From: Pseudovirgaria hyperparasitica
Taxonomy: Eukaryota
DNA length: 64,000 nucleotides
NCBI GenBank assembly: GCA_010093815.1
Contig: ML996565.1
Strand: one strand, 5' to 3'
Program-made: the position numbers and the translations under genes
Notes under the pieces: model-generated
Told to the model about the DNA's origin: nothing
Database searches by the model: none
Seen by the model: the letters and a program-made list of their open reading frames with translations, nothing else
Shown: one piece after another, positions 32,106-41,203 of the stretch
Layout: every line of letters starts with the position of its first letter
Numbering within the stretch: the first letter of the stretch is position 1

Positions 32106-34958
32106 TCAGAAAGGAATAGGTTTCTTCCACGCCGGCAGCTGCCTGAGATTATCTTCGTCGAATTTCACATGCCTCTTCTCATCGAGCCACGCCCCCTCAT
32201 CGGTACTCTTAAGACCCTTCTTTTCATTCTCTTCAATTAGTCTCTTACTCAATCCCATATCATCTTGAGGCAGCCAAATCGTCGCTGGCTTACTGATCAG
32301 ACTAGGATTTGTATACGCATTCTTGAGCTCATCCTCTGTATATTCGATGGCATCACCATCCTCTCCTTGGTTGTGCAAGAATGTTTTCATAACCTTATGA
32401 CTTGCGTAGATGTGTGGCTCAAAGAAACGCGCAACGGGGTCTACAACGCGTTTTGGAATATGCATGCTGTTGCCTAGACTTTGGATGCGAGAATGCTCAT
32501 CGGCACCATCTATGACCCCTTCTTCCGCGGTAAGCAACGGCTCTTCTTCTTCTCCTTCAGCTGCTAGCAAATCATCAGGGAAGTGATCCTCAAGCGGACT
32601 CAAGTAGCGGTTCATAACGACATTGTAAGCGATTGTTCCGAAGAATAACACTGCGATCATGATTGAGGGGCCAGTCGCTTTTCGTAGTCCGAATAATCCA
32701 ATGAGTGCGAGCTCGCCGACGTATATACCAGTCAACATTTGCGTCAGCGCCCGGGTGTAGCACTTTCCTTTCGTTTCGAGCTTGGGCTGGACGACGTAAA
32801 GAAGCTGGTGGCGGTAGCAGAAATAAAAAAGTATCAAGCCAATAGCAGCAATACCTAGTACGAGAGGCGAGATGATCGAGTATGCAAGGGCGATGATGAC
32901 GAAATTATTGAACTTGGGATACATCTTACCCCATCCTATGCCTTTCATGGTGGTATACTGTGTGTATTTGTCTCGGGGTGTCTTGTTGATGAACCAGTCC
33001 CAGAAGACATATTGGAAGAGATCGGAATAATTGAGGATATTTTTGGTTGCCGAACCGAGACCTTGCAGAATGAAATAAGTGAGGTAGAAGTTGGATGAGC
33101 TGGGTAGCTTGTCGGCCAATAGCATCGGGACATTTCCAGGATTGTTGATGAGTTGTGGTACAAAAGCAGTTGCTGACGAAGACAGAGCAGTAACGAAAAA
33201 GACTTGAATGATCTGAAATAGATAGTACCACGTCTGTACTTGTAGCTCTGCCGTCACTGTTGTTGGTTCGAACATTTTTGCAACATCTGTAGTGTGTCAA
33301 TCAAATGTCGACTACTAGGATTCGCAGCTTACATCTCAATATGTCCGGAACATATGAAGCGATGAAGCTCGTCGCTAAAGGGGGCAGTAGTCCTACCATC
33401 AGTCCCAAGATGGGATCTGGCAGACTTTTGATCCAGCCAAGCCACTGAACTTTTTCTGCTAGATAGTTGACATTGGAGATCGAGGCGATGAATGCAGTTG
33501 GTATAGACCAAAAGATGATTAGTGCTATTACAAACACGTTACCGGCAGACTTCTTTGACAGTCGAACAGATTGAGGTAGCGTGATGTTTGTCCATATGAT
33601 TTCTTTTGGCAGGACACCGATCAATTTAGACTTGATCGCAAGATTTGCTGGCATTGGTATTTTTGACTTTGGATTGCTTCGGTAAGCTCGTTGAGCGGCC
33701 GACTGCGTTGCGTATTCCACGAAAATGGCAGATCGGGCTTCAGCAGCATCCGTGCTATGTAAATCTCGATCTTCGTCGACTTTCTGTACTTTGGCGGTAG
33801 CTTCGGCCTGGAGATGGTCAATCGCGTCGGATTCTGTCCCGAGGACATAGTATTGCTTGCGAATTGGTCGCAGGGCAGAGATTGTCTGGTCGGTCAAGCC
33901 AACCACGCCTGAGCCATTTCTCTTCGATATTTTCGCTCTCTTCTTGTTCACCGTCTTCAGATAACAAAGCTCGGTAGACTCCAGTTGAGCTAATGTTGCG
34001 TTCCTTGCTCCCACGTGCTCATCCAATTTTGGTGTAGGCTTCACCACCCATTGTCGCATGACCTCCTTGCCCAAAGTGGACTGGGATTCACCGTCAACCA
34101 ACACATCTTTTGGTGGATCAAGATAGAGTACAGTCCTTGAAGAAAGGCGAGAGGCGTTAGTCCTTGATAGGTGCCAAGCTTGGCGTAGACCGATCAACCA
34201 CATACGTTCTCGGGCTATCGTAAACATGACGAAGCCAAAATATACCCAAGCCACAACGGCATGTGCATACAGACGTTTCTTACCATGAACATTCCCGAAC
34301 CCAAGCTTGTCCAACTGAGAAGCATTGCCCTTACCAGTGGCGTTAACAGGGAAGAGAATTGGCCAGGTGATGCAGGCTCCAATTACACAGATGAAGATGA
34401 TAGTCTTCAGAAAACGGAGGTAGAGATACGCATCGAGAGATGAGTGTTCTAAAACGAATTTATCGCCTAATTGCCATATGGGTTTTAGCCATTCGATGCG
34501 TGCTGTGCTCGAGCCTGGAGTCCGATCTCTGTTGAATGTCAGGCCCAGATTTTGATATTTACGCCGTGACGGTGGTATTACTTCTCTGAAATAAGGTCGA
34601 TGTAAGTCCTCGGGGCATAAATGCGTTTATGATAGCGCCTGATGAGGCAGAATATCACAAGAAATATGATAGCGGTGATAAGAGACGGGACAAAAGCGGC
34701 GATGATTGCGGCAAGTGACGCAGACTTACTGCCTGACTAAAGGCATTGTTAGTATCAAGCAGTCCAAGTGTATCAGAAGAGTGAAGGCAGAATGCCCTCC
34801 ATCACTTCTACGTAAAGCAGGGAGCAGGGATCATGGTGCTCGTGGGTGTGTAGTACGTCTGGAGCACTTACGTCATTACCGCCGTTCTTGTCGAAAGCAA
34901 AAATGCGATCTGGAACGTCCCAGTCCAGCGGGGAGTAGAGCACTGTTTGTGCATCCAT
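32106..34958 (-). CDS. CSC1/OSCA/TMEM63 (Phm7/DUF221) stress-gated cation channel, 4 exons
   Basis: Exon 1 MDAQ..GGND, then intron 34871-34737. Motifs IYAPRT, LDAYLYLRFL, ILFPVNATG, SSRTVL, PKEIIWTN, FQIIQVFFV, SNFYLTYFILQG, YSIISPL, YRHQLLYV. Multiple TM helices. Confidence 0.92.
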
Positions 34959-35704
34959 ATTCTATGTATGTCAGGATTCAGGTCAATATCAAGACTAGCG
35001 TTGGTGATTGTGAAAGAACCATGTCAAGGTAGATGGAGATGGCAACGTGCAACCGGAATCTCGAAACAAGGCAACAGGATTGAGCAGGATTGGAGCTGGC
35101 GCCACTCTTGGCTGTGGCTGAGCACTCATGCGCAGATCTGAGCACGTCACGTTGATCTAAGGACCTAGGTGCTTGCCTTACGTGGACGAGAACAACGACA
35201 ACGACACTGCGCGAACGACCCATACGAGTATCACCGTATCTATTACTAGAATCATACTAGTCACCAAGTCAACTATGCCGAGATGGAACTCCACACCTTG
35301 TTACATGTACTCCATCCTCTCGGACGTTCCTCCGGCCGGTCTAGAGTTAGATTGGGGATGCAAGGCTGCTCGAGGAGATCGGTCAGTCAGCCTGCATTAG
35401 CTGGCTCAGTTCTGTACACAATCGACCTCGTATAGACAATACTGTGCCCCTAGTGGTGTCTAGAGTCAAAACCACATTGGCCGATATCCTGCGTGAGATG
35501 CTGATCGGTGTCATTGTCTCCCTGAGAGACTTCTAGACCATGTTCACTCGATCTTATCGTATTTCAGCTGAAAGTGGGCGGGGCATAAAACGCACTACAA
35601 GACCTGGAATTGAGAACTGGGAAACTCTTCTGTATCACTGTGTCCTCCAGCAAAATCTAGCAAGGTGCTAACCAGAAAGTCTTCGAAGACGTGCCAGACT
35701 CATC

Positions 35705-36263
35705 ATGGTCATCTGCAATTCAATCCTCGTACACTTACTTCTGACGATACTCGTCTCTGCTGCTCCTAAACAAATGTCGAAGATGGCCACGTGCGGCTAC
35801 CCGGTGTTTCGTTCTCTCCCAATCGAGGAGGGCATGTTCCCGCGCTCTCTTTTTGGCCGGCAAACCTACAGTCCCAATTGTCCCATGCTAACCTTATCAT
35901 GTGACCCTACTGGCTCCATTTGCTGCGAATACGGGAAGCAATGCTGTGGCAATGGTTGCTGTGATATTGGCTATAGCTGCGAGTCGACTTCCTCTGGACT
36001 TGCTTGTTGCCCGTACTCGGGCGTGGCAGAGGGTGTCTGCGCCGATTTATCTGTTACAAATGTTCGTCATATTCAAATTTATGTTTGACCGCGGCTGATT
36101 TGTAGCGAAGCCATGCCAAGGAGACGACCAGTACTGCGTAGCCACAGACTATTGTTGCCCCATCGACACTGGATGTGCTGTTTATAGCGATGGCTCTCCT
36201 TATTGCGCTACGGCAGATTCTCTCCCATCGATCTCCACGACAATCACCCCGATATACTCCTGA
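35705..36263 (+). CDS. Signal peptide plus Cys-rich (CC/CCP) ectodomain exons, probable 5' part of the TM-HET gene
   Basis: MVICNSILVHLLLTILVSA is followed by 13 Cys including four CC pairs. Intron donor GTTCGT at 36062, branch-like GCTGAT, candidate acceptors 36105/36110. The frame from 36111 reads PCQGDDQYCVATDYCCPIDTGCAVYSDGSPYCAT and stops at TGA 36261. Confidence 0.7.
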
Positions 36264-39012
36264 CTCTGCTACAATGCGCTCAACATACAGTCCCCCCCCA
36301 GAAGAATACAGCAGTATTTCGACTATCTCCACGCCTGAGCCCGATATACCATTATTCTCCATACCCGGTGATACGTCGACTTTGACCACTACAACCGATT
36401 CCTCTCCTGCTATTTCTACTCGTCCTGTAACAGCAAGTCTACCATATACGCCTTTGATGAGCTTAGTTTCGAGCCTTCATATAAGCTCTTCTCTAGGGAT
36501 AGAAGCGAACTCGAAGTCATTTTGGAATAGTCCTGTGTCAGAGACCGCAACTTCATATACCCAATCCACGGGCTCTTACACATCGACAAGTAATGGTCCT
36601 ACGTCCACAATCTCTACTATCACTACCACGAGTTCCATAAATCCTACAAGAAGTCCTCTCTCCAGTAGCGCGATTGGAGGAATTACAGGGGGTGGTATAG
36701 CTGCTCTCTTCGCTCTTCTTCTCATCTGGTGGTGTATCCATAAAGGCTGGTGCCTCACCCCTAAGAGGTCTAACGGAAGCACCGTCCACGTGGTACATCA
36801 GCATCATCATACGAGCCCCAAAGTCCCCCGCGTGCCGGAGACACATACCAGCTTGGACCATCGACACAAAATTATCCGTCGAAAACAACGTTCAGACCTT
36901 CCACGGAGCACTCGCTACAAACCCGGTCTCGATGACGAACGAGAATCTCCTCGTCTCTTTCAAAGACTGCCTCAGGGCTGGATCCTATTAGCTCACCTTC
37001 AGCCGGGAGAGGGTAATGACGCTTTACACTGCGAGATACGAGACAGCACTCAATCTGAGAAGTATGAGGCACTCTCTTGGGTCTGGTTTCAGCGCTCTCG
37101 AATAGAGAAAAACTCGAAGAAGCCCCTTAGGATGATCCCAATGCTCGTTAGTCGGTCGGATGGGATCAAAGATGGGCAACATATCATTATGTGGATTACT
37201 CCAAATCTCGCTAGAGCCCTATGGAAGCTACGTCCGCCTCTAGGTCAGACATCCCGACCGTTATGGATTGATATGCTCTGTATCATACAAGGCAGCTCTG
37301 TTGAGGCAAGAGAAGATCAAGAACAACAGCTGCCACTAATGGCCTCCATCTATGGCTCTGCTCAATACGTGATTGCCTGGCTCGGGGAGATTGCTGAGGG
37401 TATAGAATTCATATTCGAACAGGCCAACCTCATTATCGGTCTCGACACGCCTTTTTCTGAAAAGATAATGCCTTACAAACCCTTCGTTGACTACAGTCCG
37501 AAGGAAGTTCAAATTATACATGATTTTGCTTTGAGAGATTACTGGACTAGGATTTGGATTGTCCAAGAATTTGCCCTATCAAACTCCAGCTTTTCGCTTA
37601 TTTTCAAATCCGACGAGCTCGAAACAACGTGGCCTCAAGTGAATGTTCTCATCAATGATATAGATGGACCAACGCAACATGGCGTCGTCCGAAATATTGT
37701 TGACGACTACGTACTGTTCCCGGGCGTGGTCAATTGTTCGGTTCTGGCCGCCGTCCGCAAGTATGTGAGACCTGCCCAAATATTACAATACAAGTTTTAC
37801 GAGATCAAACATGAGGGCCTCCGACTACTGCCTTTGATTCACTATCTACGCAATCACATGTGTGGCGAGCCCATGGATCGCTTCATGGCTCTCAAATCAC
37901 TCACCCGTGGTGATACATTTGATATAATCAGTCCCCAATACAATATTAAGAACCAATATGTAGCGGAGTATGGTAGTCAAGCGTGGCTTGCACTAGAGCG
38001 CTTTTTTCCTCGCGTCACTCGTCCTGTCAAATACCACAGATCCGAACTGACAGCGATCGCTCATACATACGGTCAACTCGTCGAACTCGTAGCCATACTC
38101 TATGGTCGTCTCGATGCCCTCAACTGCAACACGGGCCAGACTGAGGAAGAAAGCCTCCATGGGTATGGCTTATCATCCTGGATCCCCAACCTCTGGAGCC
38201 CGCACACCACGTATTCACTCATCGATGGCGGCCGCGGTCCCGAAACCTGGTTTCAGGACATCGAGCACATGTACTCCGCTGGAATGGCAAGACCGCCAGC
38301 AGTATACAGACTAAAACCCCTTGATGGTAGTCACTACAGCCCAGACCCAGGCAAGCTTCTAGTTACAGGCTTCCAATTCGACTATATCGACAAGATACTG
38401 CCCCAGGCTGTCACGCCACAAACGCTCGAGGTACCACTCGGCGAACGTACCGTTGCGCGTCTCAATGACGCACTGCTTACCTGGGCAGAAAACAATGCCG
38501 CTGAGCTGGATGGGTGGGGTCTGGGTATATACCGAGACTGGAATGGCGGCTACGATATGGCGTTGCGCCGCATGCTCGTTGCAAATGTTGATCCCGCTCG
38601 GGCCTTTGGCAATCCCACTGCGAAAACCTCCGGCCACGACCTCAACTTCTGCAGGTCTACGGAGTGGGGCCAGGAGCCGACGCGCACGCTGACTGATGTT
38701 ACGAAGGTCTGGCCACAGGAGATCATGCGTGTGCACCTCAACAGGCGTATGTTCCGCACTCGTATGGGGTATATTGGTGTGGGACCTGAAGCCTTGAAGA
38801 AGGGTGATTTGGTCGTTATTCTTTTCGGGGGGCAGACACCTTACGTGCTTAGAGAGAATAGTTTGGCGGCTCCGACGAGAATACATGGGACTGGTCAGAA
38901 AGGGCGGTGGCAGACGTATAAATTTCTAGGCGAGTGCTATGTTGACGGAATCATGGGCGATGACAACGGAACGGCAGATAGCGATCATCGCCAGGACTTT
39001 GTTCTAGAATAG
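36175..39012 (+). CDS. Single-pass membrane protein with cytoplasmic HET (HET-6-like) domain
   Basis: One stop-free ORF. It has a Ser/Thr stalk (about 36260-36670), a TM helix AIGGITGGGIAALFALLLIWWCI (about 36670-36738), HET motifs YEALSWVW (37063), LWIDMLCIIQ (37261), QLPLMASIYGSAQYVIAWLG and YWTRIWIVQE (37540), and a HET-6-type C-terminus RRMFRTRMGYIGVGP..GDLVVILFGGQTPYVLR..FLGECYVDGIM. Confidence 0.9.
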   Translation: MLFIAMALLIALRQILSHRSPRQSPRYTPDSATMRSTYSPPPEEYSSISTISTPEPDIPLFSIPGDTSTLTTTTDSSPAISTRPVTASLPYTPLMSLVSSLHISSSLGIEANSKSFWNSPVSETATSYTQSTGSYTSTSNGPTSTISTITTTSSINPTRSPLSSSAIGGITGGGIAALFALLLIWWCIHKGWCLTPKRSNGSTVHVVHQHHHTSPKVPRVPETHTSLDHRHKIIRRKQRSDLPRSTRYKPGLDDERESPRLFQRLPQGWILLAHLQPGEGNDALHCEIRDSTQSEKYEALSWVWFQRSRIEKNSKKPLRMIPMLVSRSDGIKDGQHIIMWITPNLARALWKLRPPLGQTSRPLWIDMLCIIQGSSVEAREDQEQQLPLMASIYGSAQYVIAWLGEIAEGIEFIFEQANLIIGLDTPFSEKIMPYKPFVDYSPKEVQIIHDFALRDYWTRIWIVQEFALSNSSFSLIFKSDELETTWPQVNVLINDIDGPTQHGVVRNIVDDYVLFPGVVNCSVLAAVRKYVRPAQILQYKFYEIKHEGLRLLPLIHYLRNHMCGEPMDRFMALKSLTRGDTFDIISPQYNIKNQYVAEYGSQAWLALERFFPRVTRPVKYHRSELTAIAHTYGQLVELVAILYGRLDALNCNTGQTEEESLHGYGLSSWIPNLWSPHTTYSLIDGGRGPETWFQDIEHMYSAGMARPPAVYRLKPLDGSHYSPDPGKLLVTGFQFDYIDKILPQAVTPQTLEVPLGERTVARLNDALLTWAENNAAELDGWGLGIYRDWNGGYDMALRRMLVANVDPARAFGNPTAKTSGHDLNFCRSTEWGQEPTRTLTDVTKVWPQEIMRVHLNRRMFRTRMGYIGVGPEALKKGDLVVILFGGQTPYVLRENSLAAPTRIHGTGQKGRWQTYKFLGECYVDGIMGDDNGTADSDHRQDFVLE

Positions 39013-41203
39013 GGTTCTGGAACACCATATATGTACATTTTCATGATTGTTAGTGGTTTATCCTTCTATAAATAAGCAAAAAATCCAAGATCGTAGTGCA
39101 TAATATCGAGTCGGGGTACCTAACATCTTCAGTCACTCAGCCTACTAGCAACATTCCTCCAGTACCTCATCTTGAATTTGGCTCTAGACCATGTGCTTAT
39201 GCAATGAAACAGATTCTTTCTCCATCAGGTTTATGTCCTGAATACATAGATGTCCAATACATCCTGAGGCGAGGAGTAGAGGGTTGTCATGAACATGTCC
39301 AGCGAGGCAACGCCGTGTCACCAAATATAAAATTAGATATGCATAGTCTGAGTCCCTGTAGGTGTTTAGGCAATTGACATTCGTCTCTGAGCGTCAGGAG
39401 CCGAGTTCTGAAATTGCCTTCTGAACTCCTTGACTGTTACTGATTCGACCGCAATTACAAGCACTAGCAGTGTTTAACTGGGAGTCCTATGTCAGGAAGT
39501 ATAGACTACCTGCCCACGAGAACACCGGTGACAGTATTTGTCCAACATGCAATCGTACTTTGAGATCCAAAAGCTAATACTGTAAGCTGTAGCTGACTGG
39601 TCGAGAGGCATTTATGCGCCCGAACGCAAACCTGTACAACAAAATACAATGTCTGTGCTAGATAGAGTCAGCAGTTTTGTGAGCGCTCCGTTACTGTCGC
39701 GTCTCTCTGGGAGGTACTGCGTGGTATCGAGGAGCTTCGCGACTTTTTTATCTCTCCAGTACGTCCGATAAGCACCCCTGATGTGGTCTGAGATCCCACT
39801 ACAACTGAGGGACTCTTGTGACTTGGATGAATGTGCTTAGAAAGGGTTCTGTTGATGTAAGAGTCCCCAGTAACTAGTACGAAGTGAATTATATTGGCGA
39901 GGTGATTTTGGAGTAGATACATGTGGTTCGGAGGGATCGTTTATGGCTTTTATTAGAATCAATCCAAGAGGCGCTAAGACTAGCATCCACCTGCTCTTTA
40001 TCTACAGATCTTCATACTGCGTCATACTCTGGTCATCTTCCTTGAGAATTTTCGCCAGTCTCCAGCGCTGATGGTAGAGGCGAAAAGTTGAGGTGTAGAA
40101 CCAAAGAAATACCTAGGCACATAATGGACAGGATAACTAAAAGTGAGTCGACTGTGCTGCGCATAGAAGCTATGCAGACTATCTAAGTCTAGTGTGAAGT
40201 GATGTGAGAGGACACCCCAGCCTGGAGACGCATGCGTGACGAAGGAATGCAGCCTGAGAATACACCCCGGTTCCAATGTGCTGAAGTCCCAAGGCGCCAT
40301 AGTAATAAGGACACATACTATTGGAGCTTCGATATCATAGTCCCCGGCGTTCAATCCATACGTTATGTCTAGTTGAACCATCCGGCTACATTGCAGCCAC
40401 ACAATGCTACTTGCATTTGTCTTTGATGAGTCTAGAGCTTGACGTCAATCATTCTCATCAATATTAGGATATAGCTGTCGGTGAGGCTTTTCGGTCGGCC
40501 AGTGGAATTTAAGGCAAGTATGTCGAGCACCAATAGACGTTCCAAAGCGTATCTATCCGATTGGTGGACGTTGCCAGATGAAGTAGAAAAGAAAAGATGC
40601 CGTCCTTGATGCGCTACGACCAATATAGCCTAGCGCTGGATTTTCGTGGCAGTGGATACCTAGTCCGAAATTGGGAAACGACACAGAATGAAAGGATGAG
40701 TCGATAACAAGAGTATCGCCAGACTTTCAATTATGCAGTTGGGAGAGTAGTCATGCAGCCTTGCGCAGGCTGCACTGTGGTGTAGCATGCATATATACTG
40801 CAACAAGGTCCCCACTTTTCGCACAGGGTGAGTGTTGCGATCGACAAGGAAGCTCCGGACTAGGAAAATAGCTCTGCTTGCACTGGTCTTTATTCGGTCA
40901 GGTGTAGCGAAGAGGTTACCTTTCTCCCATAGCATCTATCAGTGCAAGAACTAGTGTCAGTAGGAACATAGGTCGGGTTTGGATATGCACACAAGGTCAT
41001 TATTCCATTATTATTACTGATCATTTCGGCATGATACAACCATACATACGACGATACACACAGTGGACACCCAAGTGCCATGCCTGATCCTCGCCATCAC
41101 GAAGGAAATCCATAGCTTCCAGAACACAATTTCCTCCCATCTCATTCATAACTCATCACTTCCATTCGCAGCATATTCTATGCATACGTGTGTATGTAGA
41201 CAG

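Follow-up and report, generated by a model that had tools for sequence, protein, structure and literature searches.

A probable frameshifted allele in a family of membrane-anchored HET proteins with a cysteine-rich head in Pseudovirgaria hyperparasitica

Organization of the locus and its transcript

The DNA analyzed here, referred to as the window, is a 64,000-nucleotide (nt) stretch of contig ML996565.1 of Pseudovirgaria hyperparasitica (assembly GCA_010093815.1). Its plus strand carries, at positions 35705-39012, a gene with coding stretches for a signal peptide and a Cys-rich head, a Ser/Thr-rich stalk, a single transmembrane (TM) helix and a HET domain. The original prediction, made from the letters of the window, proposed that these parts form a surface receptor analogous to animal Toll-like receptors, in which an extracellular sensor is fused to a HET death effector. 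The head and the stalk-TM-HET part were found to lie in different reading frames, in two overlapping open reading frames (ORFs) designated ORF1 and ORF2.

Four public sequence runs (X1-X4) cover the locus, and their contigs were compared across window positions 33000-41000. X1 and X2 consist of DNA-type contigs and may be the assembly's own source. X3 and X4 come from another study, the record of which gives no run kind; they were read as RNA assemblies for the single reason that their contigs skip four introns (GT..AG) retained by the DNA contigs. The skipped stretches are 36062-36110 (GT..AG, 49 nt) and three CT..AC intervals of the neighbouring minus-strand gene; X1 and X2 keep all four. 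A single X3 contig of 3840 nt corresponds to 35205-36061 joined to 36111-39093, with 0 differences from the window, and X4 covers the same stretch in two pieces with an identical joint (36061/36111), its contig starting at 35201. The coding stretches for the head, stalk, TM helix and HET domain are located together on what assembles as a single transcript, and the locus is best read as one transcription unit of at least 35205-39093 with a single 49-nt intron. The 500-nt leader (35205-35704) contains four short upstream ORFs, whose ATGs are placed at 35275, 35283, 35498 and 35540 in the ORF list of the spliced transcript. The features of the gene are the following:

35205..35704, plus strand: 5' leader of the spliced contigs (X3 starts at 35205, X4 at 35201)
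35705..36061, plus strand: ORF1 exon 1, signal peptide MVICNSILVHLLLTILVSAA and Cys-rich head module 1 (translation P0009, hydropathy, family alignment)
36062..36110, plus strand: intron of 49 nt, GT..AG, phase 0, between '..N' and 'PC..' (joint in X3 and X4, absent from X1 and X2)
36111..36263, plus strand: ORF1 exon 2, frame 0, head module 2 (6 Cys), Ser/Thr tail of 18 codons, stop TGA at 36261-36263 (translation P0010)
36190..39012, plus strand: ORF2, frame +1, 940 codons and stop, with stalk, TM helix, linker, HET domain and C-terminal region; overlaps ORF1 by 74 nt
36207..36260, plus strand: zone of the frame change (from 0 to +1, equal to gaining one base or losing two), which holds a run of four C at 36247-36250
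36258..36263, plus strand: TCC TGA (C next), the two codons that close ORF1 (sense, then stop), matching the canonical site of antizyme +1 shifting exactly
36264..36669, plus strand: Ser/Thr/Pro-rich stalk, frame +1 (composition scan)
36670..36738, plus strand: single TM helix AIGGITGGGIAALFALLLIWWCI (hydropathy; AIGG start common to the relatives L002 and P0056)
36739..37062, plus strand: basic stop-transfer stretch (HKGWCLTPKR) and cytoplasmic linker (sequence)
37063..37569, plus strand: HET domain PF06985, ending with WIVQE (37555-37569) (Pfam match)
37570..39009, plus strand: C-terminal region (..IGVGP..GD..ILFGGQTPYVLR..LGECYVDG..), common to stand-alone HET proteins (alignment)
39013..39093, plus strand: 3' untranslated stretch, up to the last base of the spliced X3 contig (39093)

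ORF1 starts at ATG 35705 with a hydrophobic N-terminus (11-residue mean of 2.95 in a hydropathy scan). Exon 1 encodes 14 Cys and exon 2 encodes six, and one of these 20 lies within the signal peptide, which leaves the 19 in the mature part that the original prediction had counted behind an upstream signal peptide. From 36111, exon 2 in frame 0 reads PCQGDDQYCVATDYCCPIDTGCAVYSDGSPYCATADSLPSISTTITPIYS (PCQGDDQYC...SPYCATADSLPSISTTITPIYS) and then meets TGA 36261-36263; the last Cys codon of the head is 36204-36206, and the frame-0 stop follows 18 codons later. Standard decoding of the observed spliced transcript gives a 169-aa secreted head alone. No Pfam family at E<=1 and no leucine-rich repeat (LRR) was found in the head of the window gene. 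Head module 1 was modelled with low confidence (predicted local distance difference test score, pLDDT, of 65.7) as a stack of beta-hairpins, and a Foldseek search of this model against the PDB gave only weak granulin, TNFR and EGF rows (E 1.1-7). A granulin-like hairpin stack may serve as a lead only, the granulin row in the Atlas having a TM-score of 0.2-0.3.

The stop-free frame of ORF2, noticed in the original prediction as one long ORF, spans 36142-39012 (956 codons); its first ATG (36190) opens a 940-aa product, which is the public database protein of the window (P0001). ORF2 has no signal peptide of its own, and nine ORF-opening ATGs precede its start on the observed spliced contig. The predicted order of parts was confirmed along this frame. 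Ser and Thr make up 38-55% of 40-residue windows over residues 41-180 of the 956-codon reading, and AIGGITGGGIAALFALLLIWWCI (residues 177-199; Kyte-Doolittle 19-residue mean of 2.13) is the sole TM-grade segment beyond the N-terminus, with the basic HKGWCLTPKR directly after it. The linker, estimated earlier at about 100 aa, measures 108 residues from the end of the TM helix to the Pfam HET start and ∼75 to the first conserved HET strand. No Met was found between the TM helix and the YEALSWVW core motif, and the HET part therefore cannot arise as a separate cytosolic protein. The HET domain is complete, as had been claimed: PF06985 matches residues 308-476 over positions 1-146 of its 146-position profile (E 3.2e-18, 66.9 bits versus a gathering cut-off of 22.5). 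The core motifs YEALSWVW and WIDMLCIIQ are present, as is WIVQE with its glutamate (residues 472-476 of the 956-codon reading). Across 57 aligned sequences the Q and E of W-x-x-Q-E are nearly invariant, and at least 90% of the rows, if not all, keep S48, D113, Q211 and E212 (as numbered in the cytoplasmic part).

Two further observations concern the run contigs. Those of X2 are broken at 36069-36098, where a 55-nt contig carries 25 foreign letters resembling a linker of the loxP type; the most likely source is a junction from a mate-pair library, not the genome itself. Downstream of the gene, spliced-run contigs of 532 and 154 nt lie over 40217-40753, and none was found over 39094-40216.

Relatives with a head, stalk, TM helix and HET domain

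A search with the exon-1 product among 1.84 billion representatives yielded 16 proteins at E<=1e-3. Twelve were kept as family, while P0011, P0015, P0017 and P0018 (repeat or unrelated proteins) were dropped from the head alignment. The resulting alignment A1, with 13 rows (the 12 proteins and the window exon-1 product), has 10 invariant Cys. The 12 head relatives are small fungal Cys-rich ORF calls, most of them unspliced and reading on into the intron. A metagenome scan with the head alignment identified four loci (L001-L004), three of them fungal; the bacterial L004 was dropped.

In L001 and L002, a single ORF after the intron (861 and 850 codons, respectively) encodes the remaining parts: head module 2 and a stalk of Ser/Thr character, a TM helix with basic stop-transfer residues behind it, and a linker leading to a full HET domain (Pfam HET E 6e-29 in L001 and 7e-19 in L002). 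The position and phase of the head intron are common to the window, L001 (6313-6359, 47 nt) and L002 (3156-3242, 87 nt). No Pfam family was found in the heads of L001 and L002 at E<=0.1. A search with the L002 ORF gave 51 proteins, 47 of which were used in alignment A2 (P0070, P0074, P0077 and P0078 were left out). One of them, P0029, is 86% identical to L002 and is partial, its ORF call starting inside the TM helix. Another, P0056, is a 950-aa protein of Lojkania enalia, annotated as hypothetical, in which a single chain combines both head modules with stalk, TM helix, poly-Pro and HET domain. Module 2 of the window gene (frame 0) can be aligned with that of L001, L002 and P0056 at all six Cys, and AIGG at the start of the TM helix is common to L002, P0056 and the +1 frame of the window.

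The cytoplasmic parts of the window and L002 are 28% identical over 681 columns (E 2e-47). This match is far better than that of the window ORF to any database protein (<=69 bits): among 5.8 billion proteins, the window ORF had eight matches, namely its own protein and seven distant ones (<=29% identity in the best high-scoring segment pair), and no orthologue of 525-1673 aa was found. When 57 cytoplasmic parts were placed in a tree, that of the window gene clustered with L002/P0029 (Shimodaira-Hasegawa-like approximate likelihood ratio test, 93). A topology uniting the five head-TM-HET rows in one clade was not rejected (approximately unbiased (AU) test, p-AU 0.843, LG+G4) and had a better likelihood than the free quick search.

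The single-ORF relatives and the shared intron indicate that the fusion is real and conserved at the level of the family, and they exclude the case, named in the original prediction as its possible refutation, in which an open frame links two separate genes by chance. The window gene shares with the family the signal peptide, the 10-Cys module 1, the phase-0 intron and the 6-Cys module 2, and departs from it in lacking one frame from head to HET. Judged from these characters of the sequence, it is a broken member of the family by descent, not an intact one.

Parts of this architecture also occur separately. L003 (5728-6755) encodes a short fungal protein in which a Cys-rich head leads into a stretch rich in Ser and Gly and then a hydrophobic C-terminus resembling a glycosylphosphatidylinositol signal, with no HET domain in the gene; the presence of the head on such a protein indicates that the head is a movable extracellular module. 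ORFs on the minus strand of L003 that look HET-like by eye gave no Pfam match. A TM-grade segment upstream of the HET motif was detected in 4 of the 50 HET relatives that have the motif (P0001, P0056, P0073 and, doubtfully, P0003). P0073 (Coleophoma crateriformis) and P0065 have one or two TM-grade segments upstream of the HET core and lack a Cys-rich head. HET domains may have become membrane-anchored on more than one occasion.

The frame break and its explanation

The 36062-36110 intron (phase 0) joins exon 1 to frame 0, while the stalk-TM-HET ORF runs in frame +1. Frame 0 is head-like and then stalk-like up to its stop, and frame +1 is stalk-like from about 36250. No base or length differences from the window were found in X1, X2, X3 or X4, and the spliced contigs have no second joint within 36111-39093. 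Since two DNA and two spliced runs carry identical letters, the frame break is real in both DNA and RNA and cannot be put down to faulty assembly. Eight consecutive C at 36292-36299 in the ORF2 stalk (Ser-Pro-Pro-Pro) form a second slippage-prone site, located just downstream of the break.

These data bear directly on the literal form of the original prediction, namely an intact head-stalk-TM-HET protein encoded here, with the apparent break due to an assembly or sequencing error or to a second intron. The relatives have exactly such a single-frame structure, but the model is contradicted by the four runs, with neither inserted or missing letters nor another joint. A second intron was rejected as a rescue of the frame on the same ground and because no GT dinucleotide occurs within 36182-36290. 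An alternative acceptor five bases upstream (36104-36105) does enter frame +1, but hits TAG at 36139-36141. We attach next to no probability to this model. The claimed fusion of an extracellular sensor to a HET domain is supported for L001, L002 and P0056, where it is encoded in one frame, and not for the window gene, where the head and the HET domain are in different frames.

The window gene is probably split by a frameshift and unable to make the whole receptor. As the +1 frame is still open over 2.8 kb, the break is either recent or the frame is still in use; judging from the sequence, a recent break appears likely. The explanation that we consider likely is that the window carries a transcribed, recently frameshifted null or near-null allele of an uncharacterised type-I membrane HET family. 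This family comprises a small number of so far uncharacterised, predicted type-I membrane proteins of ascomycetes, with the layout of (i) a signal peptide, (ii) a two-module head (10 + 6 Cys), (iii) a Ser/Thr stalk, (iv) a TM helix and basic stretch, and (v) a HET domain, which is preceded by a linker of ∼75-110 aa and followed by the C-terminal extension usual in stand-alone HET proteins. In the window copy, one extra or two missing bases at 36207-36260, in the part that encodes the low-complexity stalk, would cause translation to end at TGA 36261-36263, leaving the 169-aa secreted head. ORF2 is probably translated hardly or not at all, because it lacks a signal peptide and lies behind nine upstream ORF-opening AUGs. 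In intact members, the head and an O-glycosylated stalk may extend into the cell wall, by analogy with Wsc/Mid2-type sensors. A ligand of foreign origin or borne by the wall, or damage to the wall, would then cluster the ectodomains and gather the cytoplasmic, TIR-like HET domains, and the gathered domains may oligomerise and trigger HET-dependent regulated cell death or signalling.

Several points weigh against this interpretation. A contig is no proof of a single RNA molecule, as two overlapping transcripts would give the same assembly, and an internal start site for ORF2 is compatible with the contig data. X3 and X4 are identical to the window at every base, so they possibly represent the same strain, and there is no second allele among the runs. 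The recent age of the break is read from the open frame and from nothing else. In the data reached the family is tiny, consisting of the window, L001, L002, P0029 (partial) and P0056, and a search with the head region of P0056 matched only P0056. L001 and P0056 stand apart on long, poorly supported branches in the free tree, and the AU result may partly reflect long-branch attraction. The receptor and death functions of the family are those that we infer, and HET biochemistry is listed as not determined in the recent reviews, as far as their text was covered. It should also be noted that ORF1 closes with TCC TGA C and that the overlapping ORF2 runs in the +1 frame, which is formally the antizyme arrangement, and some full-length trans-frame product is possible.

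This last arrangement raises the question of programmed or leaky +1 frameshifting at UCC-UGA-C (36258-36264), by which much soluble head and little full-length receptor would be made. As in the antizyme mRNA cassette, ORF1 ends in UCC-UGA and overlaps a +1 ORF2 with no plausible independent start; this ORF2 is open for 940 codons without a signal peptide of its own. The protein is, however, unrelated to antizyme, and the two-ORF layout is not conserved, L001, L002 and P0056 being encoded in a single frame. In the 171 nt around and after the site (36230-36400), no stable 3' structure that might stimulate shifting was found: the RNA folds no better than shuffled sequences (z of -1.16), 26 of 200 shuffles being as stable or more so. 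Moreover, TCC-TGA is the off-frame reading of ACT CCT GAC (Thr-Pro-Asp), which are ordinary stalk codons, and recoding of the +1 type is very rare in cells. Most metazoan and many fungal antizyme mRNAs shift at UCC-UGA, with the 3' stop codon affecting the level of shifting, according to the part of the source covered (PMC1874602). On balance, recoding at this site appears very unlikely. A broader version of the idea regards the family as surface death receptors analogous to Toll-like receptors, whose dose is set here by +1 recoding at UCC-UGA, such that translation would mostly end with the secreted head (perhaps a decoy or co-ligand) and few ribosomes would go on to make the full receptor; this we consider highly improbable.

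A functional split of the gene was also considered, in which the 169-aa secreted head is accompanied by a head-less stalk-TM-HET protein that a shorter transcript would encode, starting at ATG 36190 or at an in-frame ATG further on, with the TM helix serving as signal anchor. Both frames are intact and transcribed, a Cys-rich head without HET exists in L003, and the basic residues after the TM helix make N-out insertion conceivable. Against this, nine ORF-opening ATGs lie ahead of 36190 on the observed contig, and passage of the first 176 residues through the membrane would need to take place with no signal peptide. The product would begin with a hydrophobic stretch (MALLIAL) that is an off-frame reading of head module 2, and a similar off-frame stretch occurs in P0012, the unspliced ORF call of L001. 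We therefore regard a functional split as unlikely, and retain a recently frameshifted null or near-null allele as the preferred explanation.

Comparison with known systems, neighbouring genes and significance

The window gene resembles the stand-alone HET proteins of filamentous ascomycetes (Neurospora HET-6, TOL and PIN-C; Podospora HET-domain genes) in matching the full Pfam HET profile, and its core motifs and C-terminal region align with those of 56 other HET proteins. Stand-alone HET proteins begin 30-130 residues before the core motif and, unlike the window family, have no signal peptide, ectodomain or TM helix. In the Neurospora het-c/pin-c system of non-self recognition, HET-C, a membrane protein of the secretory pathway, is coupled to the HET-domain death effector PIN-C. 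That system consists of two genes and a cytosolic HET protein, whereas the intact relatives described here are single polypeptides; the likeness described here is one of layout.

The Wsc/Mid2 cell-wall integrity sensors of yeasts and other fungi, which act in wall-stress sensing, are built of a signal peptide, a Cys-rich head, a Ser/Thr stalk, a single TM helix and a cytoplasmic tail, a layout like that of the family. Their signalling tail is short, while the window family has a HET protein of ∼750 aa instead. Neither WSC (PF01822) nor Mid2 (PF04478) was matched by Pfam in the window, L001 or L002. The look-alikes of the P0056 head-stalk-TM part in the ESM Atlas are ascomycete 'Mid2 domain' / TM_ErbB1 clusters (0.88-0.89), which are leads only.

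Animal Toll-like receptors have the type-I layout of the window family, with an ectodomain, one TM helix and a TIR-like fold inside. Their ectodomain is made of LRRs and their cytoplasmic domain is a TIR; in the window gene, Pfam gave no LRR match in the head and no TIR match in the cytoplasmic part. The resemblance proposed in the original prediction is an analogy of layout, not membership, and the HET domain is only weakly similar to the TIR fold (Z of 5.7 at most).

An AF2 model of the 692-aa cytoplasmic part (pLDDT 75.2, predicted template modelling score, pTM, 0.82) gave nothing at E<=0.001 in a Foldseek search against the PDB. In a wide structure search with the whole model, residues ∼41-290 best matched TIR domains and nucleoside deoxyribosyltransferases, the top ten rows having Z of 5.0-5.7; no score reached 8, the value below which the tool regards matches as noise. 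Judged by their titles, 24 of the 50 rows listed belong to TIR, ThsB or SEFIR entries, and seven are nucleoside deoxyribosyltransferases, which scored equally. The TIR domains of SARM1 (Z 5.5), Hydra TRR-2 (5.5) and MyD88 (5.2) are among these rows, again below the noise bar. The review literature, in the portions covered, describes HET as a distant TIR relative that is sufficient for cell death; the modelled structure agrees with this published kinship and adds little to it.

The neighbour of the gene on the minus strand (33000-35034) encodes an RSN1/CSC1-type channel (Pfam RSN1_TM, E 3.6e-35, with PHM7_cyt and RSN1_7TM), with three introns supported by the spliced contigs (33287-33332, 34529-34581 and 34737-34871). 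Only ∼170 nt separate the spliced-contig start of the gene from the 5' end of the contig of this divergent neighbour (about 35034), and this short gap suggests a shared bidirectional promoter. When the 44 window ORFs of at least 100 aa within 24000-50000 were compared with L001-L003, only the gene's own two ORFs matched, and no shared neighbours were found. One extra match was a second HET-like stretch on the opposite strand of L001: it lies at 1675-2268 on the minus strand, ∼3.6 kb upstream of the head-TM-HET gene (tblastn with the window ORF, E 8e-8).

Non-self recognition and regulated cell death in fungi are currently explained by cytosolic nucleotide-binding and oligomerization domain-like receptors, gasdermins and HET proteins of the stand-alone kind. 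In a comparative study, fungi were found to have no surface receptors of the Toll-like or LRR type, as stated in the part of it covered (PMC2939053). In the full-text literature covered, supplements aside, no description of a TM-anchored HET protein with a Cys-rich head was met, and the portions of recent reviews on HET that were covered contain no mention of membrane-anchored forms. HET proteins themselves are well known; the type-I membrane form with a conserved Cys-rich head is new as far as this literature extends.

For annotation, the window gene should not be recorded as an intact 940-aa protein starting within the head-coding exon. If our preferred explanation is correct, the window copy is a natural frameshifted allele, which would show that such genes can be lost quickly. 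A broken copy lowers the direct value of the window gene itself. A HET domain placed behind an ectodomain resembling that of wall sensors is nevertheless a concrete, testable candidate for a link between sensing of the outside and a TIR-like death module, and the family remains a candidate for outside-in death signalling in fungi.

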